A stretch of DNA of 64,000 bases from an uncultured Verrucomicrobiae bacterium (GCA_963708525.1 CAVPTH010000009.1:273351-337350); one strand, 5' to 3'. Counted from the stretch's first letter, positions 1-36,972 are shown. The notes: generated by a model not told the origin, from the sequence alone. Numbers and translations: made by a program.

Positions 1-266
1 AACTTTTTGATTTCCGATTTGTGCAGGAGCAGCTTGCGCGGAGCCTTGGGCTGATGGTTCTGGAGATTGCCGTGCGAGTATTCGTCGATGTGCGCGTTGT
101 AAAGCCAGACCTCGTCCTTCTCCACCCGCGCGAAGGCGTCGGTGATCTGGCCCTTGCCCGCGCGCAGCGATTTGACCTCCGTGCCGTGCAACACGATGCC
201 CGCCTCAAACGTCTCCAGGATGTGGTAATCGCGCCGCGCCTTGTGGTTGGTCACGATGTCGGCCAT
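1..266 (-). CDS. smpB: SsrA-binding protein SmpB; 3' end cut by the window edge
   Basis: Absent from the ORF track because there is no stop in the window. Reverse complement from the ATG at 266-264 reads MADIVTNHKARRDYHILETFEAGIVLHGTEVKSLRAGKGQITDAFARVEKDEVWLYNAHIDEYSHGNLQNHQPKAPRKLLLHKSEIKKL, a typical SmpB N-terminal part. It supersedes the 21..320 + ORF. Confidence 0.9.
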   Translation of the reverse strand, partial: MADIVTNHKARRDYHILETFEAGIVLHGTEVKSLRAGKGQITDAFARVEKDEVWLYNAHIDEYSHGNLQNHQPKAPRKLLLHKSEIKK

Positions 267-276
267 GACCGTTTGG

Positions 277-388
277 GATTTTTGATTTATGATTTACGAT
301 TTATGATTTGCAGCCGGTGATCGAGCTTAGGTCTCACAACGGCGCTTTTAAAAATCATAAATCATCAATCGTAAATCGTAAATAAATC
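277..388. repeat. hairpin of inverted heptamer arrays: GATTTNN x5 (277-311) and NNAAATC x5-6 (350-388)
   Basis: Read directly. Left arm: GATTTTT GATTTAT GATTTAC GATTTAT GATTTGC. Right arm: AAAAATC ATAAATC ATCAATC GTAAATC GTAAATA AATC. Confidence 0.85.
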
Positions 389-641
389 AGCGCTTGCGGC
401 GTTTCTTGGCCTGCGGCCGGACCAATTCGACCGGTTCGGGCATTTCCCAGCCGATTTTCTCCTCGAGAATTTCCCGGAGCGCGATGTCGGCCACTCCGAG
501 ATTGGTGGTGTTGGCCACCAACGGACGGCTTAACCCGCCGCCGCCCGCATTGAGCTGGCGGACCCGGCGGGAAATCAGGTTGACGAGTACGTTGGGGTTG
601 CCAACTTTTTCGGCAGCCTTCCTACACAATTCAGCGTTCAC
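387..641 (-). CDS. rpoZ: DNA-directed RNA polymerase omega subunit
   Basis: 84 aa. NPNVLVNLISRRVRQLN matches the conserved omega N-terminal helix motif. Small size and basic tail fit. Confidence 0.7.
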   Translation of the reverse strand: MNAELCRKAAEKVGNPNVLVNLISRRVRQLNAGGGGLSRPLVANTTNLGVADIALREILEEKIGWEMPEPVELVRPQAKKRRKR

Positions 642-864
642 AATTTCAAGTCGAAAAGAGCGGGAAAGAATAGCTGCTTCGCCAACTTAAGCAATAAGAA
701 TTTTGCTGATTTTTCGAAACCGGATTTGATGCGATTTAGCGGCCAAATGGCATAAAACAGGGCAAATCCTGAAAACACGTCAATCAGGGAGGCTGGGGCC
801 GGTGGTTTTCTCCATCGGCCCACGGTATCCCGAACACATGATGCAATTAATCAGGCGATGAAAA

Positions 865-918
865 GGTAGGGACATCCCGCCGGGATGTCCGCGGACGCCG
901 CGGCGCGACGTCCCTACC
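865..918. repeat. nested palindromic REP-like element
   Basis: Outer arms GGTAGGGAC (865-873) / GTCCCTACC (910-918). Inner hairpin GACATCCC-gcc-GGGATGTC (871-889). Confidence 0.7.
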
Positions 919-986
919 AATGAAAATAAAATTCCCGGATAACCCGTTGCTTGCCCGAACCGGATTTTTTCTTAAAATAACGGTGC

Positions 987-1886
987 ATGTCCGCCTCAAA
1001 CCAATTTGATCTACAGGATTTTCTGGCCACGCGCACCGAAACCGTCAACCGCGCGCTCGATAAATTTCTGCCGACCGAAAAGACCAGGCCCGCGACCATC
1101 CACAAGGCGATGCGCTATTCGCTGTTCGCCGGCGGCAAGCGGATGCGTCCAGCACTTTGCCTGGCCGCCGCGGAAGCTTGCAATGGACGCGAAACCGATG
1201 CCCTGCCGCTCGCGTGCGCCGTCGAGTGCATCCACACTTATTCGCTCATCCACGACGATTTGCCCGCGATGGACAACGACGATTTCCGTCGTGGCAAACC
1301 GACCAACCACAAGGTGTTCGGCGACGGGATTGCCGTTCTGGCAGGCGATGCGTTGCTGACGCAGGCGTTCGAAATTGCCGCGCAAGCCAAAGGCTGGCCG
1401 CGTTATCCCCACCGGACGATTATTTTGGAGATCGCGAAGGCCTCCGGTTCGCTGCAACTCGTCGCCGGGCAGGTGGCGGATTTGGAAGGTGAAGGCAAAA
1501 AAATCTCCGCCAGCGAACTCCGCTACATCCACGAGCGCAAGACTTCCGCGTTGTTATGCTGTTCCGTACGGCTCGGCGGCATGAGCGCCAACTGCACGTC
1601 TGCGCAACTCAAGGCCCTGACAGATTTCGGCTATCACGTCGGGCTCGCGTTCCAGGTGATTGACGACATCCTGGATGTGACTCAAACCAGCGAGCAACTT
1701 GGCAAGACGGCGGGTAAAGACACCGCGGCGCAAAAGGCCACCTATCCGGCGATTGTCGGTTTGGAGAAATCCCGAAAGATTGCGAAACAACTGACCGCCC
1801 GAGCCTTCGCCGCGTTGAAGCTGTTCAAAGGCCGTGCCATCGCACTCGAAGCCTTGGCGGAATTTTTGTTGAAGCGGGATAAATGA
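987..1886 (+). CDS. ispA: polyprenyl (farnesyl/geranylgeranyl) diphosphate synthase
   Basis: 299 aa. First Asp-rich motif LIHDDLPAMDNDDFRRGKP and second motif FQVIDDILD; GKRMRP motif also present. Confidence 0.9.
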   Translation: MSASNQFDLQDFLATRTETVNRALDKFLPTEKTRPATIHKAMRYSLFAGGKRMRPALCLAAAEACNGRETDALPLACAVECIHTYSLIHDDLPAMDNDDFRRGKPTNHKVFGDGIAVLAGDALLTQAFEIAAQAKGWPRYPHRTIILEIAKASGSLQLVAGQVADLEGEGKKISASELRYIHERKTSALLCCSVRLGGMSANCTSAQLKALTDFGYHVGLAFQVIDDILDVTQTSEQLGKTAGKDTAAQKATYPAIVGLEKSRKIAKQLTARAFAALKLFKGRAIALEALAEFLLKRDK

Positions 1887-2017
1887 AACCAGTCGAGGTA
1901 ATATATGCAACCTCAGTTTGAAATATTTCCGGCTGAAATTTGATTTGCTTCCAGCGAAGGGAATTTGGGGAACGAACACCTGATCGTAAAAGCCGATATT
2001 TCGCGACTTTGGTTTTC

Positions 2018-2179
2018 CAGCACCGTAGGTGCGGCATATTTGCAGCCTCGAAAATCAAATCCATCTTGAGCCCCGTCGGGGCGGCATATTCCATCATCTG
2101 TTCCTACGATGCCGTTCCTGACGGAGCTTGGGGATTTTTGGTCGGGTTTTCTACAAATATGCCGCGCCTACGGCGCTGG
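2018..2179. repeat. three copies of a ~27-nt GC-rich motif ending GCGGCATATT(TG), third copy inverted
   Basis: CAGCACCGTAGGTGCGGCATATTTGCAG (2018-2045); CCCCGTCGGGGCGGCATATTCCATC (2071-2095); CTACAAATATGCCGCGCCTACGGCGCTGG (2151-2179) is the reverse complement of the same motif. Confidence 0.75.
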
Positions 2180-2225
2180 ATTTCATCAGCCCAATCGCTC
2201 GTTTGCAGATACGGCTTTTTCTCCA

Positions 2226-2846
2226 TCACAATCCCGCGGCGACCGCGAAAGGATCCCAGGAACTGTCTTCGTGCCATTCGAACTCCGCCCGGCGCGCAAT
2301 CTCCAAGCTCTTTTCCCGACCGCACAGCCTGGCAATCACGGCCAGCGCCATGTCCATACCCGCGCTGACACCCGACGATGTGAAATACTTGTCGTCCTCC
2401 ACCCAGCGCGCCTTCGCGATCCAGTTCACCTTCGGCGCATTGATCTTCACAAGCTGAAAGGCCCGCTTGTTCGAGGTCGCTTTGCGCCCGTCCAGCAATC
2501 CGGTTCTGGCCAGCAGAAGACTTCCCGTACAAACGGTGGCAACCAGCTGCGAGCCCTCGGCCAAGCGCTTCACTTCAGCAAGGAATTGCGTATTAGTCAT
2601 TTGTTTCCGGGTCCCAATCCCGCCTGGAATGAGCAGCACATCGAACCCGCTGGCGCCCGCCATTGTCGCGTCGGCCATTCCACTTGGGCCGGCAGCGCTT
2701 TTCACGGCGCCGATTTTCTCGGCCGCCACAGTAATCCTGGCGTCACCTTCTAAAAGACCGAACATTTCGAGCGGTCCATAACAATCAAGCAGTTCGAATC
2801 CCTCAAACAGGACTGCGCCCACCTGAATTGGTGATGAAACGTTCAT
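2226..2846 (-). CDS. DJ-1/PfpI (ThiJ) family protein
   Basis: 206 aa. LLIPGGIG and the nucleophile-elbow-like ATVCTGSLLLARTGLLDGRKAT are typical of the class I glutamine amidotransferase-like DJ-1 family. Confidence 0.85.
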   Translation of the reverse strand: MNVSSPIQVGAVLFEGFELLDCYGPLEMFGLLEGDARITVAAEKIGAVKSAAGPSGMADATMAGASGFDVLLIPGGIGTRKQMTNTQFLAEVKRLAEGSQLVATVCTGSLLLARTGLLDGRKATSNKRAFQLVKINAPKVNWIAKARWVEDDKYFTSSGVSAGMDMALAVIARLCGREKSLEIARRAEFEWHEDSSWDPFAVAAGL

Positions 2847-2868
2847 AAGCGATTGGCCGATTCGCCGG

Positions 2869-3768
2869 TTAAAACCTCGTCAGTTTTTCCAATTCCTTTA
2901 CGCGCCGGTTAATTTGGGCGCGACTGGTTATGGTGGTTTGTGTCAGGCCGAACCCTTCGCAGCAGAACGAGGCCACGACGCTGCCGTGAATCATCGCGCG
3001 CCGGAAATTATCGTCGATCGAACCGCGCGCCGTCGCCAGCCAGCCCATCATCCCGCCCACAAACGAGTCGCCCGCCCCGGTCGGGTCCACCACCTTGGAC
3101 AACGGGTACGCCGGGCAGATGAAAAAACCGCGCGGCCCGGACAAAATCGAGCCGTGCGAACCCTTCTTGACGATGACGTATTTGGGGCCGAGCTTGTGGA
3201 TCTTCTTCAGCGCGGAAAAAACGTTGTCTTCCTTGGTCAACTGGTGCGCCTCGCTGTCGTTGAGCACAAAGCCGTCCAGGCGCCCGAGCAGTCTCAGCAA
3301 ATCCGGCAGCGCGATGTTCAGCCACAGGTCCATGGTGTCGGCCACGACAAATTTCGGACGGCGCATCTGGTCGAGCACGTGGTGCTGGAGTGCGGGCGCA
3401 ATGTTTGCCAGCAGGACAAATTGGGCGTCCCGGTGCGACTCGGGCAGCGTGGGGGTGAAGGTCTCGAACACGCCGAGTTCAGTCAGCAGCGTGCGGCGGT
3501 TGTTCATGTTCACTTCATACTCACCCGACCAATGGAAGGTTTTGCCGGGCAAAATCTGCAGGCCTTCCAGATCAATTTTATGCCGGCGATAAAGCTGGAG
3601 ATATTTTTTGGGGAAATCCTCGCCGACGACGCCCACCAGTTTGACCGGGCTGAAGAAGCTCGCGGCCACGGCGGCGTGGCTGGCCGAGCCACCCAGCAGG
3701 CGCGGGTTTTCGGCTTTGGGCGTTTTGATGGAATCCAGCGCGGTGGAACCGACAATGAGAACGCTCAT
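2869..3768 (-). CDS. PfkB-family carbohydrate/nucleoside kinase
   Basis: 299 aa. N-terminal LLGGSASHAA and C-terminal DPTGAGDSFVGG (PfkB signature 2). Confidence 0.85.
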   Translation of the reverse strand: MSVLIVGSTALDSIKTPKAENPRLLGGSASHAAVAASFFSPVKLVGVVGEDFPKKYLQLYRRHKIDLEGLQILPGKTFHWSGEYEVNMNNRRTLLTELGVFETFTPTLPESHRDAQFVLLANIAPALQHHVLDQMRRPKFVVADTMDLWLNIALPDLLRLLGRLDGFVLNDSEAHQLTKEDNVFSALKKIHKLGPKYVIVKKGSHGSILSGPRGFFICPAYPLSKVVDPTGAGDSFVGGMMGWLATARGSIDDNFRRAMIHGSVVASFCCEGFGLTQTTITSRAQINRRVKELEKLTRF

Positions 3769-3782
3769 TTATTCAGGGTCTG

Positions 3783-3869
3783 GGATTTAGGTTTTTGGTT
3801 TTGGTTTTGCCCTCACCCCGGCCCTCTCCCATCGGATGGGAGAGGATGGCGCGAAGCGACGGGTGAGGG
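3783..3869. repeat. single-arm GGTTTTN array (3783-3809) abutting a nested hairpin element (3810-3869)
   Basis: Array: GGATTTA GGTTTTT GGTTTT GGTTTTG. Then outer stem CCCTCACCC/GGGTGAGGG enclosing inner stem CCTCTCCCA-tcgga-TGGGAGAGG. Confidence 0.75.
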
Positions 3870-3884
3870 TTTCAGTGGACACTT

Positions 3885-4280
3885 TCAGCCACCGCCTTTG
3901 CCTTTTTGAATCAGCTCGATTTCGTAGCCTTCCGGCGCGTCGATGAAGGCGAAGGTCGTGCCGCTCGAACTGGTCGTCGGGCCATCCGAATAGTTCAGGC
4001 CGTGTTTGGCCAGGTGTTTCGCAAACTTGTCGAGACTGTCCACCTCGAACGCCAGATGCGTCAAATCCGGTTGCACCTGGACCGAGGCGCTCCCGGGAAA
4101 ATGGCAAAGCTCAATTTCCTCGTCACTGCCGGGTGCCTTGAGAAAGACCAGTTCCGAGCCCCGCGGCGATTTGTGTCGCTTGATTTCCTCGAGACCGAGG
4201 ATTTCGCGGTAGAACTTAACCGTCCGTTCCAAATCATTCACGCGATAGCGCGTATGCAGGAGCTTGTTGACCTTGCTCAT
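3885..4280 (-). CDS. VOC family protein, lactoylglutathione lyase-like
   Basis: 131 aa. LLHTRYRVNDLERTVKFYREILGL ... IELCHF ... THLAFEV ... GYEIELIQ follows the glyoxalase I fold pattern. Confidence 0.8.
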   Translation of the reverse strand: MSKVNKLLHTRYRVNDLERTVKFYREILGLEEIKRHKSPRGSELVFLKAPGSDEEIELCHFPGSASVQVQPDLTHLAFEVDSLDKFAKHLAKHGLNYSDGPTTSSSGTTFAFIDAPEGYEIELIQKGKGGG

Positions 4281-4295
4281 GCGCGGAATTTAGCA

Positions 4296-4330
4296 CTCCA
4301 ACTCCCAAAGTCCAACGTCCAAAGCAACCT
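4296..4330. repeat. heptamer array NTCCAAM x4-5
   Basis: CTCCAAC TCCCAAA GTCCAAC GTCCAAA GCAACCT, 16 nt upstream of the VOC gene start on the opposite strand. Confidence 0.7.
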
Positions 4331-4453
4331 GTATCCGGAGCGTGGCGGTTCCGGCCGCAAATGGCCAAAAATTCCAGCAGCCTTCTGCAATTCCATTGCG
4401 TCTTTCGTTATTGCTGCACGGCGCCTGAGACAGGCGCGCTCCGCCGTTTGTTT

Positions 4454-4495
4454 GACTTTAGCCTTTAGCCTTTGGCCTTTAGCGTTTAGAATTTG
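4454..4495. repeat. heptamer array GCCTTTR x6, ending 4 nt before the nusB ATG
   Basis: GACTTTA GCCTTTA GCCTTTG GCCTTTA GCGTTTA GAATTTG. Confidence 0.8.
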
Positions 4496-4499
4496 ATTT

Positions 4500-5000
4500 A
4501 TGGGTAAACGCCGTGAGGCGCGTGAACGCGCCGTCCAGTTTCTGTTTCAGCACGACCTGAATCCGCCGGAGGATTTGGACCGGGCGCTGGAGGAATTCTG
4601 GCAGACGCAACGCGCCGCGGCCATCGCCGAGGAAAAAGGCCCGGCGACGTGGGGTCAGCCCCACGAATTGCCGCCGCCAACCGCCGAAGAAGCCGAAACG
4701 CGCCTGTTCGCCGACCCGCTCATCCGCGGCGTTCTGGAGCATCGCGACGCGATTGACGAGCGCATCAAGTCCCACGCAAAGAACTGGGAATTTCACCGCA
4801 TTGCGACGGTGGACCGCAACATCATGCGGCTGGCCATCTATGAAATGCTCCATCGCGAGGACATTCCGCCCATTGTCAGCATCAACGAGGCGGTGGACGT
4901 CGCGAAGAAATTCTCCACCCAGGACAGCGGCAAGTTCGTCAATGGCATTCTGGACAAGATCAAGGGCGAATTGATGCGTCCCGCCCGAATCGTGAAATGA
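4500..5000 (+). CDS. nusB: transcription antitermination factor NusB
   Basis: 166 aa. RREARERAVQFLFQ at the N-terminus and VDRNIMRLAIYEML ... INEAVDVAKKF ... KFVNGILDKI. Confidence 0.9.
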   Translation: MGKRREARERAVQFLFQHDLNPPEDLDRALEEFWQTQRAAAIAEEKGPATWGQPHELPPPTAEEAETRLFADPLIRGVLEHRDAIDERIKSHAKNWEFHRIATVDRNIMRLAIYEMLHREDIPPIVSINEAVDVAKKFSTQDSGKFVNGILDKIKGELMRPARIVK

Positions 5001-5845
5001 AATTCGCCGACTTGCATCTGCACACGTATTTCTCCGACGGGACGTTTTCACCGGAGGAGCTGGTCGGACACGGCCATCGGCTGGGCTTTGCGGCGCTGGC
5101 ACTGACCGACCACGATTCAGTGGAAGGTTGTGCGCGCATGACCGCGGCCTGCGCGGCAGCGGGCATTGATTTCATTCCCGGCACCGAACTGACCGCCGAG
5201 CACAACGACACGGAGATTCATCTGCTCGGCTATTACCTGGATACGGAGAACCAGACGCTACTGACGGAAATCGCCAAATTTCAGGCTGTGCGTCAGAACC
5301 GCATTCATGAAATGGTGTCGCGGCTCAATGGTTTGAAAGTGCCGCTGAAGGTTGAATCGGTATTCGCGCTGGCCAACTGCAAATCTCCCGGCCGTCCGCA
5401 CGTCGCCCGGGCGCTCGTGAAGGCCGGGCTGGTCGGGAGCCTGGACGAGGCTTTCGAGCGTTTTTTAAAAAAGAACCGGCCCGCCTGGGTGCCCAAGGCC
5501 AAAATGTCCGCGCTCGAGGCGGTGGAGCTCATCCATCAGGCCGGCGGACTGGCGGTCATGGCGCATCCCGGATTGAACCGCACCGATGACGTGATTCCGG
5601 TCCTGGTCGAAGCGGGCCTGGATGGCATTGAATGTTTTCATACCAAACATTCGACCGCCGCGTCCGAGCGATATCTGGAAATCGCCGACAAATTTCATCT
5701 GCTCATCACTGGAGGTTCGGATTGCCATGGTTTCAGCAAGGGCAAACCGCTCATCGGCACCGTCAAGCTGCCTTACGAACATGTCGAAATATTGAAGGCA
5801 AAAGCTGAAGAACGGAAATACTCCACCACGGATGGACACAAATAA
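4997..5845 (+). CDS. PHP-domain phosphoesterase (TrpH/YciV-like)
   Basis: 282 aa. DLHLHTYFSDG ... LALTDHDS ... AHPG ... GIECFH ... GGSDCHG metal-ligand pattern. ATGA overlap with the nusB stop. Confidence 0.85.
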   Translation: MKFADLHLHTYFSDGTFSPEELVGHGHRLGFAALALTDHDSVEGCARMTAACAAAGIDFIPGTELTAEHNDTEIHLLGYYLDTENQTLLTEIAKFQAVRQNRIHEMVSRLNGLKVPLKVESVFALANCKSPGRPHVARALVKAGLVGSLDEAFERFLKKNRPAWVPKAKMSALEAVELIHQAGGLAVMAHPGLNRTDDVIPVLVEAGLDGIECFHTKHSTAASERYLEIADKFHLLITGGSDCHGFSKGKPLIGTVKLPYEHVEILKAKAEERKYSTTDGHK

Positions 5846-5965
5846 ACACGGATTTCTCGAAAACGGATTATTGGAGTACTCCAGCTGCCTGGTGTTTCGC
5901 CAATCCATCAATCCACTAATCCATCACTCCGGTTTTCATCCGTGTCCATCCGTGTCCATCCGTGG
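5826..5965. repeat. long imperfect hairpin with octamer (YAATCCAY x3) and decamer (CATCCGTGTC x3) tandem units
   Basis: CCACGGATGGACAC (5826-5839, inside the last codons of the PHP gene) is the exact reverse complement of GTGTCCATCCGTGG (5952-5965). Octamers at 5901-5924 and decamers at 5937-5965. Confidence 0.75.
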
Positions 5966-5975
5966 TTAAAATCAC

Positions 5976-6889
5976 ATGGGACTTTTCCAGAAATTCAAGG
6001 CCGGCCTGCAAAAAACCCACAGCCAGCTGGCGCATGAAATCAAACGCATCGTCACACGCTCGCCCAAACTCGACGCCGCCACGCTCGAGGAACTGGAAGC
6101 CGCGCTCATCGCCGCCGATCTCGGCCTGGGCACGACCGCCCAAATCGTGGCCGCCGTCAAGCACGCCTACGAAACCCAGGGCGGTGCCGGTCCGGACGTG
6201 TTTGCCATCGCCCGCGCCGAAGTGGAGAAGAGCCTGGGCTCGAATACGACCGACCTGATCCAGGCACCGCACGGCCTGACCGTGGTTTCCATTGTCGGCG
6301 TCAACGGCACCGGCAAGACCACCACGTCCGCCAAGCTCGCCCATCTGATTCAAACGCAGAAAGAAGACCGCGCTGCTGGCGGCGTGCGACACCTTTCGTG
6401 CCGCCGCCATCGAACAAATCAAATTGTGGGGGCAAAAGCTGAAAGTGGAAGTCGTCGCCGGCGCCTACGGCGCGGATGCGGCTTCCGTCGCGCACGACGC
6501 CGTCACCGCGGCGCAATCGCGCAAGGCGGATTACCTGTTCATCGATACCGCCGGCCGGCTGCACACCAAGCACAACCTGATGCAGGAATTGCAGAAATTA
6601 CATCGCGTCATCGGCAAGCAACTGCCCGGCGCGCCGCACGAAGTCCTGCTGGTGCTCGACGCCACCACCGGCATGAACGCGCTGAACCAGGCGCGTGAAT
6701 TCAACAAGGCCGTACCGCTCACCGGCCTGGTGGTGACCAAACTCGACGGCACGAGCAAAGGCGGCATGGTCGTGGCCATCCAGAGGGAACTTGGCCTGCC
6801 CGATCAAATTCATCGGCCTTGGCGAGCAGGCGGACGATTTGCAGCCGTTCGACGCCAAACAGTTTGCGCAGGCGTTGTTTGAGGAATAA
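5976..6889 (+). pseudogene. ftsY: SRP receptor FtsY, reading frame broken twice as assembled (+1 near 6358-6366 and +1 near 6799-6803)
   Basis: The first frame gives ...IVGVNGTGKTTTSAKLAHLIQTQ. The next frame continues KKTALLAACDTFRAAAIEQIKLWGQKL...FIDTAGRLHTKHNLMQEL...LVVTKLDGTSKGG...QRELGLP. The third frame continues IKFIGLGEQADDLQPFDAKQFAQALFEE, with a stop at 6887-6889. Confidence 0.85.
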
Positions 6890-6957
6890 AGGAAGGAGAA
6901 ATTATCTTTGGTGCATATGCTTGGTTCGTCGATCCTCCGCGTGCAATTGCGCCATGG

Positions 6958-7081
6958 CGTAGCGGCGTCTCGGCAGAGCGCCGCACTTCTCTGTGAATTT
7001 TCAAACAACGGCGTTCAACCAAGTTGCCGCTGCGTAGCTTGATTGATGTTCATTTTGCGGTTTTTGCCAAAAGCCGCTACG
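6958..7081 (+). repeat. REP-like element with CGTAGCGGC / GCCGCTACG termini, long copy
   Basis: CGTAGCGGCGTCTCGGCAGAGCGCCGCA at the left end and AAAGCCGCTACG at the right end. Same family as 8823..8896 and 39461..39533. Confidence 0.75.
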
Positions 7082-7137
7082 TTGGCACGCCATGATTTCC
7101 TCGACGAACGCCGGCCAGAATCGCAAATTGACCGGTC

Positions 7138-8776
7138 ATGAATAACAATCCCACTTCAGGGCTGGTCATCCTCGTCGTCACAACTCTGATGCTGCCCATC
7201 AGCCCGGTTCGCGCGGCCAATACGAACGCCGTTTTCCATGTCGTCAGCACCAGTGACGAGCCGATGGTCCCGGGCAAGTTTGCGCCGACCTGGGATTCGT
7301 TGAAGCAATACCAGTGCCCCGAATGGTTCCGTAATGCGAAGTTCGGCATCTGGGCGCACTGGGGACCGCAGTGCGAGCCTGAGGACGGTGACTGGTACGC
7401 GCGGTTAATGTATTTTACCAACACCTCGCAGTATCGATTTCAGCTCCAGCACTACGGGTCGCCAGCCGATTTTGGGTTCAAGGACGTCATCCACGAATGG
7501 AAGGCCCAGAACTGGGATCCGGACAAACTGCTGGCCCTTTACAAACGCGCCGGAGCGCAATACTTCATGGCCCTGGCCGATCACCATGACAACTTTGATA
7601 ACTGGGATTCCAAATACCAGCCCTGGAATTCCGTGAAGGTCGGGCCGCGCAAAGACCTTATCGGCGGCTGGGCCGAAGGCCGCGCGCAAACAGGGCCTGT
7701 ATTTTGGCGTGAGCGTTCATGCGTCACATGCCTGGACGTGGTATGAGCCCGCGCAGGATTTCGACGGCAAACTGACGAAGGCCGACGGCCAGGGGAAATG
7801 GTGGGACGGTCTCGACCCGCAGGATTTGTATGCCCAAAACCACACGCCCAGCGCGAATTATCAAAAGGTGAGTTCAATTTTCAATCGCTGGTACTGGGAT
7901 AACGGCGCCAGCATCCCGGACGAGGCTTATTGCAACCGATACTACAACCGCACGATGGACCTCATTGAGAAGTATCGCCCTGACCTCATTTACTTCGATG
8001 ACACGGCGCTGCCGTTGTGGCCGATCAGCGACGCGGGTCTGAAGCTGGCCGCGAATTTTTACAACCTTAACAACCAGTGGCACGGAACCAAGGACGACGG
8101 CGTGCTGTTCGGGAAAATCCTGACGCCCGACCAGCGTCAGTGCATGGTGTGGGACATCGAACGCGGGCAGGCAAATGCAATAGAGCCGTTGCACTGGCAA
8201 ACCGACACCTGCCTGGGCAACTGGCATTATGACCGGAAGATCTACGAGCGACACGGTTATAAAACCACGAAGACGGTCATCCAGACCCTGTCTGATGTCG
8301 TCAGCAAGAACGGCAACCTGTTGCTCAGCGTCCCCGTGCGCGGCGACGGAACCATTGACGACGAGGAAGTCAATATCGTTGAAGGTATCGCCGGCTGGAT
8401 GGAGGTGAACCGGGAATGCATTTTCGATACGCAGCCATGGAAAATCTTTGGCGAAGGCCCGGCGTCGGCAGGTGCGAAGTTGAGAGCGGAGGGATTCAAC
8501 GAAGGCAAAGGCAAACCATTCACGGCGGAGGATTATCGGTTCACGCTGAAAAGCAACACGCTTTACGCGATTGAACTGGGTTGGCCGACCAACGGAGTGA
8601 ACATCAAGTCGCTCGGCAAATCCGCCCATTTACTCGAGGGAAAGATCCGCAAGATTGAACTGCTTGGCAGCGGAGAGAAAATCAAATGGAAGCAAACCTC
8701 GGACGCGCTGGTTATCGCTCAACCGAAGAACGCGCCGAACAATTTCGCTGTCGTTTACAAAATCACGGCCAGGTGA
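7138..8776 (+). pseudogene. GH29 alpha-L-fucosidase with signal peptide, one +1 frame break near 7675-7683
   Basis: ORFs 7138..7746 and 7709..8776 join as ...DLIGGWAE / AARKQGLYFGVSVHASHAWTW. GH29-type motifs are KFGIWAHWGPQ and ALADHHDNFDNWDS. Confidence 0.8.
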
Positions 8777-8822
8777 GTTTGGCCGGCAGAACCATCCGCC
8801 CGGGCGATATTCGGGCCAACTG

Positions 8823-8896
8823 CGTAGCGGCGTCTCGGCAGAACGCCGCATTTCTCCGGCTTTTCGGATGGCGGCTTTCTCCCGAAAGCCGCTACG
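8823..8896 (+). repeat. REP-like element with CGTAGCGGC / GCCGCTACG termini
   Basis: CGTAGCGGCGTCTCGGCAGAACGCCGCATTTCTCCGGCTTTTCGGATGGCGGCTTTCTCCCGAAAGCCGCTACG. It ends 1 nt before the ribD ORF ATG. Confidence 0.85.
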
Positions 8897-10093
8897 ATGC
8901 TGGCAATGTCTGATACCCGATTCATGCGCCTCGCTTTGCGCCTCGCCCGGCGCGGCCAGGGGATGACCTCGCCCAACCCGATGGTCGGCGCAGTGCTGGT
9001 GAAAAGCGGTAAAATTATCGGCCGCGGCTGGCACCGGCGCGCCGGACTGCCCCATGCGGAAATCGAGGCACTTCACGACGCACAAAGACACGGCCACCAT
9101 CCCAAAGGTGCGACACTTTATGTGACCCTCGAACCGTGCAGCACGCAGGGACGCACGCCGCCCTGCACCGACGCCATTATTGCCGCGGGCATCAAACGCG
9201 TGGTGGTGGGCGCGCTGGATCCGAACCCGAAGCATTCCGGCCGGGCATTCAAGATTTTGCAGCGTGCCGGAATTGAAGTTTTTGGACTGCGCCGACACGT
9301 CGGCGCTTTGAAAAGCGGTGACATGTCACCGCACTCCAAATTAGCAAACGAATGCACCCGGCTGAACGAAGCTTTCAATCACTGGATCGTTCATCGCACA
9401 CCGTTCGTCACCGTCAAAGCCGCGATGACACTGGATGGGAAAATTGCCACGGTCAAAGGCGAATCGAAATGGATTACGGGCGAAAGAGCGCGGGCTTACG
9501 GAATGAAACTGCGGCACGAAAATGATGCGATTCTGGTCGGCATCAACACGATCCTGGCGGATGATCCGAGCCTGACGGCAAGGACGAAGATAGAGGATCG
9601 AAGAGGGAAGATAGCAAAGCCGGTTCGGAGGATTGTTCTGGATTCAATGGCGCGGACGCCGTTGAAAGCAAAAGTTGTGAGCGACAAATTCGCCCAACTG
9701 ACAACCATTGTGGTAAGCAAACAAGCACCCAAAAACCGTGTGGCCGTATTGGCCAGGCAGGTGAAAGTCCTGGTGGCTCCGACAACTGATTCAAAATTCA
9801 AAATTCAAAATTTAAAATTGGATTTGAAGTGGTTGCTCAAAAAACTGGGTTCGGAAAACGTCACCAGCCTGTTGGTGGAAGGCGGTGGTGAAGTGAACGC
9901 TTCCTTCTTGCTGGGTGGATTCGCCCGGCGCGTGGCGTTTTTCTACGCACCGAAGATTCTGGGCGGACGGGATTCGCTCAAAGCCGTGGCCGGTGAAGGC
10001 GCCAGGAACCTCAACGAAGCCCTCCAACTCCATGATATTGAATGGAAACAGCTCGGCCCGGATTTGTTGCTGACGGCGCGGGTGGCATCGTAG
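8897..10093 (+). CDS. ribD: bifunctional riboflavin biosynthesis deaminase/reductase RibD
   Basis: 398 aa. Deaminase zinc motifs HAEIEAL and TLEPCSTQGRTPPCTDA; reductase part VTVKAAMTLDGKIA ... LLVEGGGEVNASFL. The start may instead be the ATG at 8906 (MSDTRF). Confidence 0.9.
   Translation: MLAMSDTRFMRLALRLARRGQGMTSPNPMVGAVLVKSGKIIGRGWHRRAGLPHAEIEALHDAQRHGHHPKGATLYVTLEPCSTQGRTPPCTDAIIAAGIKRVVVGALDPNPKHSGRAFKILQRAGIEVFGLRRHVGALKSGDMSPHSKLANECTRLNEAFNHWIVHRTPFVTVKAAMTLDGKIATVKGESKWITGERARAYGMKLRHENDAILVGINTILADDPSLTARTKIEDRRGKIAKPVRRIVLDSMARTPLKAKVVSDKFAQLTTIVVSKQAPKNRVAVLARQVKVLVAPTTDSKFKIQNLKLDLKWLLKKLGSENVTSLLVEGGGEVNASFLLGGFARRVAFFYAPKILGGRDSLKAVAGEGARNLNEALQLHDIEWKQLGPDLLLTARVAS
9289..9332. 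repeat. double palindrome inside ribD
   Basis: GCGCCGAC-AC-GTCGGCGC (9289-9306) and GCGGTGAC-AT-GTCACCGC (9315-9332), 8 nt apart. Translated in-frame as RRHVGALKSGDMSPHS. Confidence 0.8.
9790..9824. repeat. heptamer array TTCAAAA x3 plus TTTAAAA inside ribD
   Basis: TTCAAAA TTCAAAA TTCAAAA TTTAAAA TTGGATT. Translated in-frame as DSKFKIQNLKLD. Confidence 0.8.
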
Positions 10094-10212
10094 CCGCGTT
10101 CGTGAGAACGCGGATTTTGCACTGATTGTCCGCGCTTTCACCAGCGCGGCTAAAACTGATTGGAAGCAATCACGACTCGACGGCGTCTCGCTCCGTCGCT
10201 AATTTGGCTTAA

Positions 10213-26082: not shown

Positions 26083-29000
26083 TCCACTTCCACTTCGCCG
26101 CTTTGAACTCCGTCCGCCCGGGAAGTTGAAGGCGCGTGCAGCACGCGATACCCGTGCGTCCAGGGATCAATCCGGCAGGCGGCGCGATAATCGCAAAATC
26201 GACATGGCGTTTCACTGCCTTTGCGGTACGGATCCACTTTGGCCGTACCGGCAAAAATGGAACGGCCCATCCCGGTCAACTGCCTTTCCACCCGGTCCAG
26301 CAACGCCTCAAATTCCGCACGCGGCAAGGCCTCGACCGAACCCTTGCTCGTGGAGCCATCCTTGTTTCGACGATAATTGAATTGGTCGCCGGCCTTCGCG
26401 GCGGGCCGGCTGTCCAGCCTGGGCAATGCGTCCACACTGAAACGGCCTGTGTGACGGTAGGCCAGGCGCCGTGATTCCCCCGCATCGGCGAGCGCCTCGG
26501 CCCGCGTGGCACCGCTGTCATATTTACCACGCAGGTTCACATAAAAGAACCCAGCGGGAATCAACTCTTTCACCCCGGGCAGCACACGCAAACGGGTCCA
26601 ACGTCGCGCCGCCGCCAGATAGGCCGGCAATTGCAGCTGCACACCCTGCTCGAGCAGAATCCGATCAAGCTTACGATGACCGGACTTGTAATCCACCACC
26701 ACGCACCAGGCGCGGTTGGCGGTCTCCCGGAACAAATCAATCCGGTCAATTCGCCCGCGCAAGGCCAGTTGATGGCCGTCGCCGAGGGCCAGGTCCCAGG
26801 ACGGTGCTCCCCCGGCACTGAACCCGAATTCCAGCTCGGCCACCGCCGGGTCAAACTCATATTGTCCGTGCATCCACGTCACCAGCATTTCCACAAAATC
26901 CTGCAACCACCCGCCCAGCATACGCGCTGTGAACCGGCCCTGGTCATCCGCCCGCAATAAACCGTCGCGGTAGCCGGGCGCCAGTTCGGAAGCGATCTGG
27001 CCGACGAGTTTGCGTGCCGCCGCCGGCGTGAGATCGCGCCAGCGCCGGCCTTCGGCAGTCAATTGTTCGTGAAACCGCTTGAGGACTTCGTGCTGAAAAC
27101 TGCCGCGTTCGCGCGCGTCCAGCTCGAACACTTTGCGCTCCTCGGCTCGCAGACCGGAATGGACAAAAAAACGGAACGGGCACTGGGCAAATTCCTCCAA
27201 TCGGCTGACCGAACTTAGCAGCGTTGGGCCGTAAAGGGCTTCCACCAAAACCGGCGAAAGATTTTCAGCCGGATCCGGCTCGCGCAATTGGCGCAGACTC
27301 CCGGCGAGGGTTTTGACCGCCGGTAATTCAAGCAGTTCGGCCCAATTCTTGTCGCGCCCCTCGTCCCGGCCCTCTCCCCGCCCGGCAGGAAGAGGGTGGT
27401 CGGAGGTCGGGCAAAGCGAGTTAAATTCCACCAGGGGCGCAACCAATTCATGCACCTGCACCGCGTCGCGCCAATCTGCATCGGGGTGAAATTCCTCAAT
27501 TTTCAAGTCCGGCAACAACGCCTGCAAATGCGTGATGAGAGACGACGGGTTCAATGGCCGGCCACCGGTGTCGTAGCGCGAACAGGTCACAAAAAGTTTT
27601 TCGCTGGCACGGGTACAGGCGATGTAACCGAGGTAACGTTCGCGCGCGAGCTGGTCACGCAAATTCGGACCGAGCACAACTTTCTGTCGCTCCAATTCAT
27701 CCCGGTCGGCAGCAGTCAGAATCGGTGGAGCAGCGGGGGTTTCAGGAAAAACCCCCTCGTTGGCGCCCAGCACCAGGGCGAGTCGCAAATCCGGATTGCG
27801 CGCGCGGTCCACGGCCCCGATGAGCACCTGATCGAGTGCCGGCGGAACCACCCCGACGGTCAGGCCCGCCAGCCCTGCTTCCAGAATCGGCAGCCAATCG
27901 CGCAACGACAGCGACTCATCGGAAAAAGCGAGGGCGACGTTGTCCAACCAGACATTCATCTGGTCCCAGACGGTGGAGTGGATGGCTGCTTGCGGATTGC
28001 GGATAACGGATTGGTCCGATTCAACGTGACTCCAGCGTTCCAGGGTATCCTTGACCTGCAACGCACCCCAGAGGTCACGCAAAATTTCAGCCAGTTCCGG
28101 TCCGGTCGGTTGATTTTTCAGCCGGGCCAGTTGCACGGCCAGAGCTTCAAATGGCGGCAGGATTTTTTGGCGCAGCGGTTCGAGGGATTTGGCCAAACCC
28201 GGATCGGCAGCGATTTGAACCGGCTCCCGCCATTTCGCGCCGCGCCAGCCGAATTCGAGCGCGGCGTTTTCGAGCCGGTCAATCTCCGGCTGGCCCACGG
28301 CGGAAAACCCGGCCTTCAGCGCGGCAAACCAATCATCGTGCAGCCAGTTGAATGCAATCGTGCGCAGGGCACTGCGGGTGAGTTCGGCCAGCGGGTGGTG
28401 GGTTACCGATTCACGTCGATCCAGAAAGAAGGGGATCCCATAACGGCGGAAGGCGCGAGCGAGCGGTTTGTGATAATCATCCAGGTTCCGCACCAGCACC
28501 GCCGTGTCCCGAAAGCGCCCGCCGGCGCGGACGAAACGTAAAATCTCCCGCGCCGCGAACACGGCCTCGGCATCCGGATGCGCGCAAACCGCCAGGGAAA
28601 TGGCGGATTGCCGGTTGCCGGTTGCCGATTCTCCGAATTTTCCACCCGAAGTATGCGACCAATTGTGTTCGAGGTGCCCCAGTGTGGAATATCCTGCGAA
28701 GCGATTTTTCTTCCCGTCGCGCTTGAGACAGTCGACGCTGATTTTGCAATCCGGCAAAGATTCGAGGCGCTGGCGGCATTGCTCACAGGTTTTGGCGACG
28801 GCGGATGAAACGGAAAGCCAGGAATGTTTTGCGCCGGCTGCCGGTGCGGTTTCGAGGCAAAACGACAGGGTAGCGCTGTCACAAAGCGGCAAAACGGCGG
28901 CCATCAGGTCGAGCTCCTGCGGGGTCATTTCGGCAAAACCGTCGAGCCACAGGCCGCTGATTCGGAAGTCAGAAGCCTGAAGCCGGAAATCAGAGCGAAG

Positions 29001-34700: not shown

Positions 34701-34748
34701 AAAGGCGGAACCATTGTCCGCCTGGTGGTGCCCATCACCATGAAATGA
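31716..34748 (+). CDS. sensor histidine kinase with periplasmic beta-propeller/Y_Y_Y sensor, HisKA_3 type
   Basis: 1010 aa. Repeated LWIGT/LWVGT propeller blades, one TM helix, then RSRIARDLHDQLGANL (H-box) and a HATPase region NVVKHAQAT ... DDGRG. Confidence 0.85.
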   Translation: MPKKRRLLPGAGLLFCFFAFALPLWADTVDRSESPFIVDGWSTKQGLPGSAVISMIQTRDGYLWLGTQYGLVRFDGIHFTVFDEGNTPGLNNDQIDYLFQDTHSNLWIGTDAGGVALETGGRLENFALGRSGREGRLVSACEDSTGTVWFYTADAHLGRYQNGKMEVWDFRFKTPAITRMLAAEKSGVLWIGEDWVDQERNVSLLFSFRPANVSPPAFAIEQQIPVQRLDYLLASQRGGTWRFVDGQVQKWGSNQLERNYGAYPWGNLRILAACEDPAGNLIVGTRGAGVFWFEPDGTYRQISTAQGLSSPYVLSLCLDRAGNLWVGTDGGGLDRVKRKIFNTPDGVHPWDAQSLAGDAQGGLWAAFFTHGVTCWRTNVAQDFGVGQGSNAWTVLVDHQQRVWAGTWYEGLFQFENDRFVPAPDTEILRSQISVLYEDKAGQVWAGTPNGLGLWNGLIWKTYTTRDGLSGNVVSAMAEDAAGNLWIGTKDGGLTCFRADKFVAYPASENGPPGNDISCLYVDKGGDLWVGTSGYGLARYHQGRWAHYSKREGLVSDSISYLIEDDTGNLWIGSNLGLIRIPRELLNASLQGTLDFSACRIYSEADGLPTRECSSGSQPAACRTSDGRLWFPTTRGLAYVNPAGLTPNLQPPPVMIESVLVDGREQKTNRIDSIWPPAIVIPPGRDRLEIHYTGLNLSAPNEVRFRYLLAGHETAWTEAGDTRVAFYNKLPPGDYQFQIEACNEDGIWNKKSSELAITVQPQFWQTGWFRLVAILVFLGLVAAVVRYLSTQKLHRQLQALRQREALEQERSRIARDLHDQLGANLTQVALLGEMAEADRHSPEEIASHAQQISQTARETTHALDEIVWAVNPSNDTLDGLITYACKYAQEYLGMAGLHYRAEVPPQLPVAIIPPEVRHNVFLAFKEAVNNVVKHAQATEARIRLRLQPDRFVLEIEDDGRGVGKPDAPAARTRNGLRNMRKRMEDIHGEFFMAGGAKGGTIVRLVVPITMK

Positions 34749-34833
34749 AGAAGGTAGAATGAAGAATGAAGAAAACATTTCGCGGTGGTTCAATCCTTGT
34801 TTCTTCATTCTGCATTCTTCATTCTGCATTTGA
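34742..34833. repeat. hairpin of inverted heptamer arrays AGAATGA x5 / CATTCTK x5 filling the kinase-regulator spacer
   Basis: Left arm: GAAATGA AGAAGGT AGAATGA AGAATGA AGAAAAC (34742-34776). 22-nt loop. Right arm: GTTTCTT CATTCTG CATTCTT CATTCTG CATTTGA (34799-34833). Confidence 0.85.
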
Positions 34834-36566: not shown

Positions 36567-36750
36567 AGCATATCTCCAGACAAGAGTTTCGGCCCGCCTA
36601 CGCGCTTTGCGCTACGGCGCGGCAGTCTTCGCTCTCCGCTGCATCAGGCTGGCTTGCTGAGCCGCAGCTCGGAGCGCTGGTGACAGTGATGCCGCTCTCC
36701 CGTCCGCCTTCACTTCGTTTCGGCGCGACAGTCCCGAACGCGTTCGGAGG

Positions 36751-36836
36751 TGGTGGTAGGTGATGGATTCGAACCATCGAAGGCGTAAGCCAGCAGATTT
36801 ACAGTCTGCCCCCGTTGGCCACTTGGGTAACCTACC
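36751..36836 (-). tRNA. tRNA-Tyr (anticodon GTA), CCA encoded
   Basis: The reverse complement GGTAGGTTACCCAAGTGGCCAACGGGGGCAGACTGTAAATCTGCTGGCTTACGCCTTCGATGGTTCGAATCCATCACCTACCACCA folds by hand. Acceptor stem GGTAGGT/ACCTACC. Anticodon stem GCAGA/TCTGC with loop CTGTAAA. Long variable arm. T arm GATGG-TTCGAAT-CCATC. Confidence 0.9.
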
Positions 36837-36890
36837 GACCGTCCCGGAACGTGGGGAGTGCAGATTAAGCCAAAGCACTGCTTTTGTCTC

Positions 36891-36972
36891 AAGTTCAAAG
36901 TTCAACGTTCAGAGCTCAGTGTTGGACGCGGCATCGGCCAACTTTGCACTTTGAACCCGCAACCCGAAACGT
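36891..36972. repeat. hairpin of inverted heptamer arrays AAGTTCA x4 / complementary NNAACNN x5
   Basis: Left arm: AAGTTCA AAGTTCA ACGTTCA GAGCTCA (36891-36918). 19-nt loop. Right arm: CCAACTT TGCACTT TGAACCC GCAACCC GAAACGT (36938-36972). Confidence 0.8.

Follow-up and report, generated by a model that had tools for sequence, protein, structure and literature searches.

The heptamer hairpin between smpB and an rpoZ-like gene

The window analysed here is a 64,000-nt stretch of DNA from an uncultured Verrucomicrobiae bacterium (GCA_963708525.1, CAVPTH010000009.1:273351-337350). Near its beginning, the spacer between smpB (start codon at 266, minus strand) and an rpoZ-like gene (387-641, minus strand), both identified with Pfam, is filled by a hairpin whose arms are tandem arrays of heptanucleotides. 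A first-pass annotation of the window had taken this hairpin as the prototype of a family, and its sequence, its 38-nt spacer and the complementary array all read as described there:

277-311: arm 1, five GATTTNN units (GATTTTT GATTTAT GATTTAC GATTTAT GATTTGC), with its end 10 nt away from the start codon of smpB (266, minus strand)
312-349: loop of 38 nt; in relatives the conserved arms enclose unrelated loops
350-388: arm 2, about 5.5 NNAAATC units, abutting the rpoZ-like gene at its stop codon (387-389, minus strand)

Analysis with Tandem Repeats Finder (TRF) assigned both arms a period of 7, with about 4.7 copies and 88% matches at 277-309 and 352-383. Over 32 nt the two arms show 84% complementarity; in length, this inverted repeat is surpassed within the window only by an AGAATGA hairpin at 34743-34831. 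Independent short-read contigs from soil metagenomes span 177-381 with three substitutions and no gaps, and the hairpin is therefore not an assembly artefact. The DNA runs covering this region represent related strains, as assembled contigs; they confirm the hairpin and reveal alternative loops. RNA folds of three prototype hairpins gave z values of -4.2, -4.7 and -2.6 relative to shuffled sequences. A scan for promoters and terminators detected nothing specific at the arrays, and two promoter-like matches in the prototype arms are to be expected from AT-rich repeats. In an Rfam search over the window only two tRNAs reached the gathering score, and no match fell at the arrays.

Period-7 arrays in the window and in related loci

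In the window, period 7 is represented by five strong arrays, and each other period between 4 and 12 by none or one. Related loci were collected through relatives of RibD, one genome per species; RibD served as the bait and is hence over-represented (68 arrays). These relatives belong nearly all to Verrucomicrobiota subdivision 3 (Limisphaerales, Pedosphaera) and are mostly metagenome-assembled genomes (MAGs) from soil and peat. Genes on the fetched loci were called with our own codon-usage caller, whose start positions carry some error, and many of the arrays are orthologous, so that array counts do not represent independent events.

The window and 80 related loci (1.36 Mb) contain 125 arrays of period 7, against at most eight for each other period from 4 to 15 and about 0.3 in second-order Markov controls. 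Exact runs of at least three copies numbered 70 for 7-mers in the window and 84 loci (1.44 Mb), where none was expected; in the same sequence periods 5, 6 and 8-12 gave at most five each and period 4 was at expectation. An independent 354 kb obtained via other genes held 22 period-7 arrays and no more than two of any other period. The recurrence claimed in the first-pass annotation is thus far from chance. Outside ribD, array density drops from 11.2 to 3.6 per 100 kb with declining RibD identity to the window, and this gradient, together with the period-7 excess, marks the arrays as a property of the lineage that is strongest near the window's own clade.

A slightly more sensitive threshold yielded 163 arrays, 59 between genes and 104 inside genes. 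They hold 93 distinct canonical heptamers (rotations and reverse strand pooled) of mixed composition, mostly with two to five G+C of seven. The commonest unit occurs in 10 arrays, mostly orthologous, and no core is shared among the units, the top 4-mer being present in 13 of the 93. With so many distinct heptamers and no shared core, the arrays are not decayed copies of one family, in agreement with the earlier view.

Growth in place inside genes and spacers

Within genes, arrays lie in housekeeping proteins, namely RibD, a DinG-like helicase and AddB. All of them are in frame, and relatives differ only by multiples of 21 nt (three units); between genes, the number of units per arm varies among relatives from 2 to about 6.

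Where RibD loop B has no insert, its sequence is AAATCGGCAATCAAC or a close variant, corresponding to about 1.6 copies of a heptamer. In other species the same loop carries (AATCGGC)x4, (AATCCGC)x4, (AATCGCC)x3 with a single variant, (AATCGTC/AATCATC), (AAATCGA)n or (AATTCAA)n; loops with other local codons have a TCACNCG series instead. Every one of these arrays makes the loop 21 nt longer. A second RibD loop, site A, behaves in the same way, with GAAGATG, AACATTC, GTCCAAA and other units. Each RibD array is internally uniform and orthologs differ by one or two bases per unit, a pattern that suggests either homogenisation or a seed that mutated and expanded again, repeatedly.

The DinG-like helicase of the window contains a hairpin whose left arm has four CAGTCAG-type units; the helicase of L081, a 96%-identical protein, has one, the difference being exactly 21 nt, with the right arm unchanged. 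At rpoZ-smpB the hairpin has five units per arm in the window and three in L004 and L027, whose flanking SmpB and RpoZ are 95% identical in amino acid sequence, and over 80 metagenome loci it ranges from 2 to about 6 units per arm. Slippage-type growth in place, one of the origins offered in the first-pass annotation, is thus visible in ortholog comparisons of RibD, the DinG-like helicase and rpoZ-smpB. Nothing was found in support of the other two origins offered there, a nuclease footprint and a repeat-binding protein.

Palindromes resembling repetitive extragenic palindromic (REP) sequences were also observed in frame in RibD loop B, where the heptamer array sits in other species (L012, L014, L021, L037, L007, L011). 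They code for peptides such as VGRVTPCAP...RRARSDAPYQ and recall Rickettsia palindromic elements.

Arrays and gene starts

Array density is 0.34 per kb in intergenic DNA and 0.028 per kb inside genes, a difference of about 12-fold (ribD excluded). The 59 intergenic arrays are distributed over tandem (37), divergent (21) and convergent (1) spacers, and from spacer length about nine convergent arrays would be expected (Poisson probability about 0.001). The distance from array to start codon is 5-20 nt in 33 of 58 cases. Arms ending a few nucleotides before start codons, and elements both inside genes and in divergent spacers, had been noted in the first-pass annotation, and both observations are supported. 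Upstream of ftsY, pfkB and nusB, arrays hold their position in many species though the unit changes.

Analysis of the starts of 716 genes (window and L001-L084) revealed no enrichment of Shine-Dalgarno (SD)-like motifs. In 107 of the 716, a TANNNT hexamer precedes the start codon, its end lying 6 nt away in 73 genes and 7 nt away in 34, a sharp peak against a background of about 6 per position. This peak suggests a lineage that does without SD sequences and makes many leaderless mRNAs, and some Verrucomicrobia have independently been reported to be SD-scarce (PMC10783764). A -10-like hexamer lies 5-9 nt before the start after 20 of 36 start-proximal arrays, and in about 163 of all 716 scored genes (23%). 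Many arrays would then lie in promoter DNA and not in a leader. Within the units, -10-like and -35-like motifs showed no strand asymmetry, and C was in slight excess over G. The idea of start-proximal arms as G-poor leaders was also considered and set aside; the trend is weak, C exceeding G in 20 arms and G exceeding C in 9, with many orthologs among them.

A dispersed motif of about 40 nt, TTTT(A/C)ATCCGTG..ATCCG(T/C)G..CATCCG(T/C)GGTTA, was observed just upstream of the start codons of different genes. It occurs at 5933-5973 in the window, at four places in L020, at three each in L007 and L030, and in many rpoZ-smpB spacers of L085-L164, and is very abundant in soil-metagenome contigs, where its word depth is about 10-fold over that of its neighbours. 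It is a candidate promoter module.

Inverted pairing

An inverted partner was scored where an array matched its own reverse complement at 12 or more of 14 positions within 160 nt. Partners were found for 28 of the 59 intergenic arrays (47%), against 0-1 in reversed or complement-only controls, and for 6 of the 104 in-gene arrays (controls 1-2). Unpaired arrays are equally common between genes and dominant within them. The hairpin, previously regarded as the basic unit, is therefore a subset of a wider heptanucleotide microsatellite feature like the short tandemly repeated repetitive (STRR) sequences.

Turnover and dispersal

Among genomes whose smpB DNA differs by 7-20% from that of the window, the rpoZ-smpB spacer takes at least five forms:

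Form 1: GATTTAY hairpin, with two unrelated loop types
Form 2: AGAATGA/TTCTTCA hairpin, in 12 or more other genomes
Form 3: motif TTTTAATCCGTGAAATCCGCG..CATCCGCGGTTA
Form 4: GC-rich terminator-like hairpin
Form 5: nearly empty, 12-15 nt

These forms were mapped on an smpB phylogeny from 264 nt, the resolution of which is too poor for event counts.

The AGAATGA hairpin lies between a histidine kinase and a response regulator in the window and at rpoZ-smpB elsewhere, two non-orthologous places, and its copies share an irregular second unit (AAGGTAG in the window, AAGGCGG in the rpoZ-smpB form). GATTTAY arms are present at four other loci (L001 8524, L084 2281, L015 5394 and L040 14019). At the first of these, 8524-8547 of L001, 24 bases in the PHP-ftsY spacer (AATCATCAATCGTAAATCGTAAAT), same variant unit included, are identical to the non-orthologous window positions 359-382 at rpoZ-smpB. 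Such non-orthologous copies indicate that some hairpin types were copied to new places, and a mobile-element component is needed for at least two of them (GATTTAY, AGAATGA). Most other array types are unique or only orthologous in 1.8 Mb. The earlier claim that the heptamers are unrelated and do not transpose is too strong and only partly right, in view of AGAATGA, found in the rpoZ-smpB spacers of at least 12 other genomes, and of GATTTAY with its further loci. Comparison of orthologous loci, proposed for spacers in the first-pass annotation as a means of telling insertion from expansion, gave in-place expansion and also alternative elements at rpoZ-smpB and DinG.

The DinG loop contains three different period-7 fillings, a REP, a whole unit of two REPs around a REP-associated tyrosine transposase (RAYT), or nothing. 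No target-site duplication was seen by eye at two AGAATGA sites or between nearly empty and filled rpoZ-smpB spacers, and neither shared termini nor a matching transposase was found for the dispersed hairpin types. In L084, REPs of the GTAGGACAGGCG type surround the RAYT; they are unrelated to the heptamer arrays.

The RAYT-type transposase itself (Pfam Y1_Tnp, 24-28 bits) lies, REP-flanked, in frame inside the DinG-like helicase of several relatives (L084 10001-12889; also P0038, P0039, P0074, P0098, P0104, P0116 and P0120), with a read-through protein of 950-967 residues. The insertion site is the exact equivalent of the window hairpin at 57682-57761. We are not aware of another conserved helicase that has retained an in-frame transposase gene across several diverged clusters.

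Other arrays and features of the window

The further arrays and hairpins of the window are the following:

3783-3809: single GGTTTTN array, period 6 or 7, ambiguous (TRF); just upstream of the start of a pfkB-family kinase gene (3768, minus strand)
4296-4330: TCCAAMG array adjoining the start of a glyoxalase-family gene (4280, minus strand); inverted partner of 4454-4495 over the divergent spacer
4454-4495: CTTTAGC array, about five units, then TAGAAT, then 7 nt, then the nusB ATG at 4500
5825-5966: long hairpin between the PHP-domain gene and ftsY, a related but different element with the period-10 unit CATCCGTGTC
9789-9824, plus strand: in-frame ATTCAAA array, 4.4 copies, in RibD_C loop B, coding for SKFKIQNLKL; 21 nt longer than array-free relatives
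27990-28013, minus strand: weak in-frame addB array; TTGCGGA on the plus strand, which is the AATCCGC family
28606-28633, minus strand: in-frame addB array GGTTGCC, coding for ATGNRQSAI; the orthologous site in L010 has AATCCGC
34742-34774, plus strand: AGAATGA hairpin, arm 1, starting within the histidine kinase stop codon (34746-34748)
34800-34833, plus strand: AGAATGA hairpin, arm 2 (TTCTKCA), ending 3-6 nt ahead of the response-regulator ATG (34837)
36891-36972: AAGTTCA array that makes a weak hairpin with its short complementary partner; flanked by a tRNA gene (36754-36836, minus strand) and by ffh (36986)
57682-57761, minus strand: in-frame hairpin of the DinG-like helicase, CAGTCAG ... 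CTACTGA on the coding strand; 30 extra residues that follow the TSATLAT motif directly

All sites listed in the first-pass annotation are present, two of them in weaker form: the fold of 36891-36972 is no better than shuffles (z +0.8), and the period at 3783-3809 is ambiguous. Orthologs of the latter site carry GGGTCTG, GGAGATG or GGAGTTT arrays in the same position. The RibD_C match of the window takes 224 residues for a 197-position profile (Pfam), with the array peptide inside, and the 3' part of the PHP-ftsY hairpin (5933-5973) is the multi-copy dispersed motif described above.

Two genes of the window, ftsY (5976-6882) and an alpha-L-fucosidase gene (7138-8776), are each split over two frames with Pfam domains running across the break; they are either pseudogenes or single-base assembly errors. 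A 97-codon open reading frame on the minus strand (36612-36905) is probably spurious, since it overlaps the tRNA gene at 36754-36836 and has no Pfam match. GC-rich REP-like palindromes at 865-918, 2016-2180 and 3810-3890 are unrelated to the heptamer arrays, and the last is replaced by 55 other bases in related-strain contigs. Among the related loci, several MAG records with clearly verrucomicrobial synteny are labelled Bifidobacterium, Klebsiella pneumoniae, Acidoferrum and the like (L016, L031, L043, L054, L069, L080 and others); their labels or binning look wrong.

Further candidates for the arrays were rejected. No terminator-like site in 1-10200 of the window coincides with an array, and a GC-rich stem with a T-run, as in intrinsic terminators, is absent. 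Integron attC sites and CRISPR would bring conserved R/L boxes, spacer-repeat alternation, or a cas or intI gene, none of which is in view.

Origin of the arrays

The reading that we favour, by a modest preference, is that the arrays are STRR-type heptanucleotide microsatellites and a lineage-wide property of Limisphaerales (Verrucomicrobiota subdivision 3) DNA, and no dedicated hairpin element. Tandem units of period 7, the period-7 excess, the intergenic bias and whole-unit variation are all as in STRR-type arrays; the restriction to one or a few fixed heptamers is not. The ortholog comparisons show that whole 7-nt units are gained and lost in place, with a stretch of local sequence holding about 1.6 heptamer copies as the seed. 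The step itself would most likely be slipped-strand mispairing when DNA is replicated or repaired, the lineage having a preference of its own for registers of 7 nt. Arrays persist where extra DNA is tolerated, in short spacers just upstream of starts and in protein surface loops that pass only multiples of 21 nt. Inverted pairs probably arise at the DNA level, either when both arms of an existing inverted repeat expand or when strand switching copies an array inverted, and once both arms are tandem, misaligned pairing could let them change in parallel. Some hairpin types have also been copied to new sites. Most copies would have no sequence-specific function, their effect probably being limited to spacing or local structure upstream of genes; a possible regulatory role in this upstream region would agree with the bias in location.

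Several points weigh against this account. Slippage is deduced from assembled contigs rather than seen directly, the gain of three units in one step inside genes would have to be assumed, and slippage leaves the register of 7 without a reason. The gene-start bias and the avoidance of convergent spacers suggest selection or a start-linked origin rather than plain neutrality. The elements at rpoZ-smpB swap for one another among genomes whose smpB DNA differs by only 7-13%, for which growth in place alone is insufficient, and the AGAATGA hairpin and GATTTAY arms recur at the non-orthologous loci given above.

Those last points are among the grounds for regarding the hairpins as small non-autonomous elements like MITEs (miniature inverted-repeat transposable elements) or REPINs (paired REP sequences), of many families, with heptamer-structured terminal inverted repeats, inserted in spacers and permissive loops, the changes in unit number being secondary. 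We regard this as unlikely overall. Conserved arms around unrelated loops are consistent with it, as are the ends of the AGAATGA element, which match at two loci (AAATGmAGAA ... TTCTkCATTT) with the odd second unit included, and the GATTTAY arms at four further loci. So are the four alternative fillings or near-emptiness of the rpoZ-smpB spacer, the REP and REP-RAYT-REP contents of the DinG loop beside its period-7 fillings, and the presence of RAYT-type transposases in the lineage. Terminal inverted repeats, however, belong to 28 of the 59 intergenic arrays and not to the rest, partnerless arrays being as common as pairs, and 93 distinct units in 163 arrays, most types unique or only orthologous in 1.8 Mb, weigh against it. 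Neither target-site duplications nor shared termini were seen, the RibD arrays have clearly grown from local sequence, the REPs around the RAYT are unrelated to any heptamer array, and the heptamer arrays avoid the 3' and convergent spacers in which REP- and MITE-type elements are preferentially located. About equally improbable, in our estimate, is that the arrays act in cis at gene starts, either through promoter spacing or structure of leaderless genes or as an unstructured leader for S1, Csp or similar proteins, with unit number tuning expression. The stop of arrays 5-20 nt before starts, the avoidance of convergent spacers, the -10-like hexamer after 20 of 36 start-proximal arrays against about 163 of 716 genes (23%), and the position kept upstream of ftsY, pfkB and nusB despite unit change all speak for such a role. 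Beggiatoaceae TAACTGA and Nostoc heptamer repeats likewise adjoin start codons, and a deletion in Nostoc altered reporter expression (PMC4679880, bioRxiv 10.1101/2022.06.06.494920). With nearly a hundred different units, however, no single binding protein is plausible; -10-like and -35-like motifs lack sense/antisense asymmetry and the C-over-G excess is weak, the same arrays occur inside housekeeping genes, and relatives have none at the same loci.

Paired arrays could also be intercistronic RNA stem-loops serving as terminators or attenuators, as 3'-end stabilisers or in translational coupling, which we judge very unlikely. Hairpins do take up the spacer, beginning at the stop codon and leaving about 6-10 nt ahead of the following start (rpoZ-smpB, histidine kinase-response regulator, PHP-ftsY), their folds beat shuffles (z -2.6 to -4.7), and some relatives have a GC-rich terminator-like hairpin in the same rpoZ-smpB position. 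Yet only one of 59 arrays lies in a convergent spacer, where terminators concentrate, the stems are AT-rich and a T-run is absent, so that the arrays are not ordinary terminators, as the first-pass annotation had held. Half of the pairs stand in divergent spacers, with their arms on different transcripts. Antisense folds equally well or better: in keeping with an origin at the DNA level, sense RNA folds better in only 3 of 13 spacers and 13 of 29 smpB spacers. Covariation is almost absent: when 17 short-loop rpoZ-smpB spacers were aligned, the covariation term was 0.15 and a clean consensus hairpin failed to emerge. The arms also decay, as the right arm has done in several lineages. No evidence was thus obtained that the arrays are terminators or are under selection as structures of the sense RNA. 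Phase variation, in which the arrays would be contingency switches working through one 7-nt unit, is scarcely credible: such a unit shifts the reading frame, and genes or promoter regions do contain some perfect arrays, but the genes are housekeeping ones (ribD, addB, dinG, smpB, nusB, ftsY, ffh), every in-gene array seen keeps the frame, and relatives differ by multiples of 21 nt.

A more speculative variant of lineage-specific growth, which we consider decidedly unlikely, is that a dedicated Limisphaerales activity measures the 7-nt register, builds or extends the arrays and copies them inverted. It could be a property of a polymerase, either replicative or of repair, of a primase-polymerase, or of a nuclease or recombinase with structure specificity, and the same activity, possibly horizontally transferred, could be behind the STRR and TAACTGA arrays of cyanobacteria and Beggiatoaceae. 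If this were true, an unrelated phylum with hundreds of idiosyncratic arrays, a clean seed-to-array series in conserved genes and inverted pairs in abundance would make the gene findable by phylogenetic profiling, and the question "why seven?" testable.

Comparison with known heptanucleotide repeats and mobile elements

STRR sequences were reportedly named and first described by Mazel et al. in 1990, and the 2007 report of heptameric repeat over-representation is said to be that of Mrazek et al. Heptanucleotide arrays have been known since 1990. Heptamers are the most over-represented long class of simple repeats in many bacteria, and polymerase slippage has been proposed (PMC4692102, PMC4679880); the over-representation of heptameric simple repeats in many bacteria goes back to a 2007 study, as cited in PMC4692102 (reference 33 there).

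Like the STRR of heterocystous cyanobacteria, the arrays consist of tandem 7-nt units with few copies each and many arrays per genome, mostly intergenic. Cyanobacteria have few fixed heptamers genome-wide, for example three STRR heptamers in Calothrix PCC 7601 as cited in PMC4692102, whereas here 163 arrays hold 93 units, half of the intergenic arrays are paired and the phylum is another. The TAACTGA repeats of marine Beggiatoaceae, some Cyanobacteria and Bacteroidetes (PMC4679880) resemble them in standing as 2-6 copies a few nucleotides upstream of starts, often without an SD sequence, in including housekeeping targets, and in having few copies in genes or over stop codons. They also show 7-nt indels between close strains, as at the TAACTGA arrays of Cyanothece strains (PMC4679880). 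There, however, only one heptamer occurs, with a strong orientation bias and one inverted repeat in 170 sets; here there are many heptamers, no clear orientation rule and 47% pairing. The Xanthomonas GGGAATC and Nostoc GGGGAYT repeats (PMC4692102) share the intergenic period-7 excess, the variation in length and sequence among relatives, some inverted repeats and the slippage hypothesis, but are G-rich, potentially quadruplex-forming and of one unit type per genome, in contrast to the mixed composition found here. The TTTTGAT heptads of the Vibrio cholerae ctxAB promoter (bioRxiv 10.1101/2021.05.14.444153) are likewise a promoter-region heptamer array with strain-variable copy number; there the locus is single and ToxR is the binding protein, unlike the hundreds of loci and different units here.

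REP/REPIN sequences with RAYT, and MITEs, are similar in their inverted arms, variable centre and intergenic position, in the occurrence of some types at several loci and in the RAYT genes of the lineage. The heptamer arrays differ from them in apparently having no common consensus per genome, in showing no target duplication, in avoiding convergent spacers, and in being unrelated to the RAYT-flanking REPs. Rickettsia palindromic elements, whose copies belong to a few dispersed families, are palindromes inserted in frame into protein-coding genes. Hairpin DNA in frame at permissive loops of housekeeping proteins (DinG-like helicase, RibD) is common to both, whereas here the arrays inside genes have grown out of the local sequence by steps of 21 nt.

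To the study of heptanucleotide arrays this lineage adds a natural series from a seed of about 1.6 copies to an array of 4-5 copies in conserved proteins, always with a gain of 21 nt, arrays that are fixed in place while the unit sequence changes, and a high frequency of inverted pairs, in contrast to their rarity in other systems (Beggiatoa, 1 of 170 sets). There are practical consequences as well: the arrays add low-complexity peptides of 7-30 residues to housekeeping proteins, which matters for annotation, they break short-read assemblies, and they sit exactly at the promoters of apparently leaderless genes.

A full-text literature search found no paper describing heptamer arrays in Verrucomicrobia or Pedosphaera. 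The earlier statement that nothing of the kind had been described therefore holds for genomes of the Planctomycetes-Verrucomicrobia-Chlamydiae group in the literature searched, but the kind itself is known, with arrays at start codons, 7-nt indels and occasional inverted pairs (PMC4679880, PMC4692102). Compared with those systems, heptamer arrays beside start codons are thus familiar, and what is new here is the phylum, the large number of units, the 47% inverted pairing and the in-frame arrays in conserved proteins.

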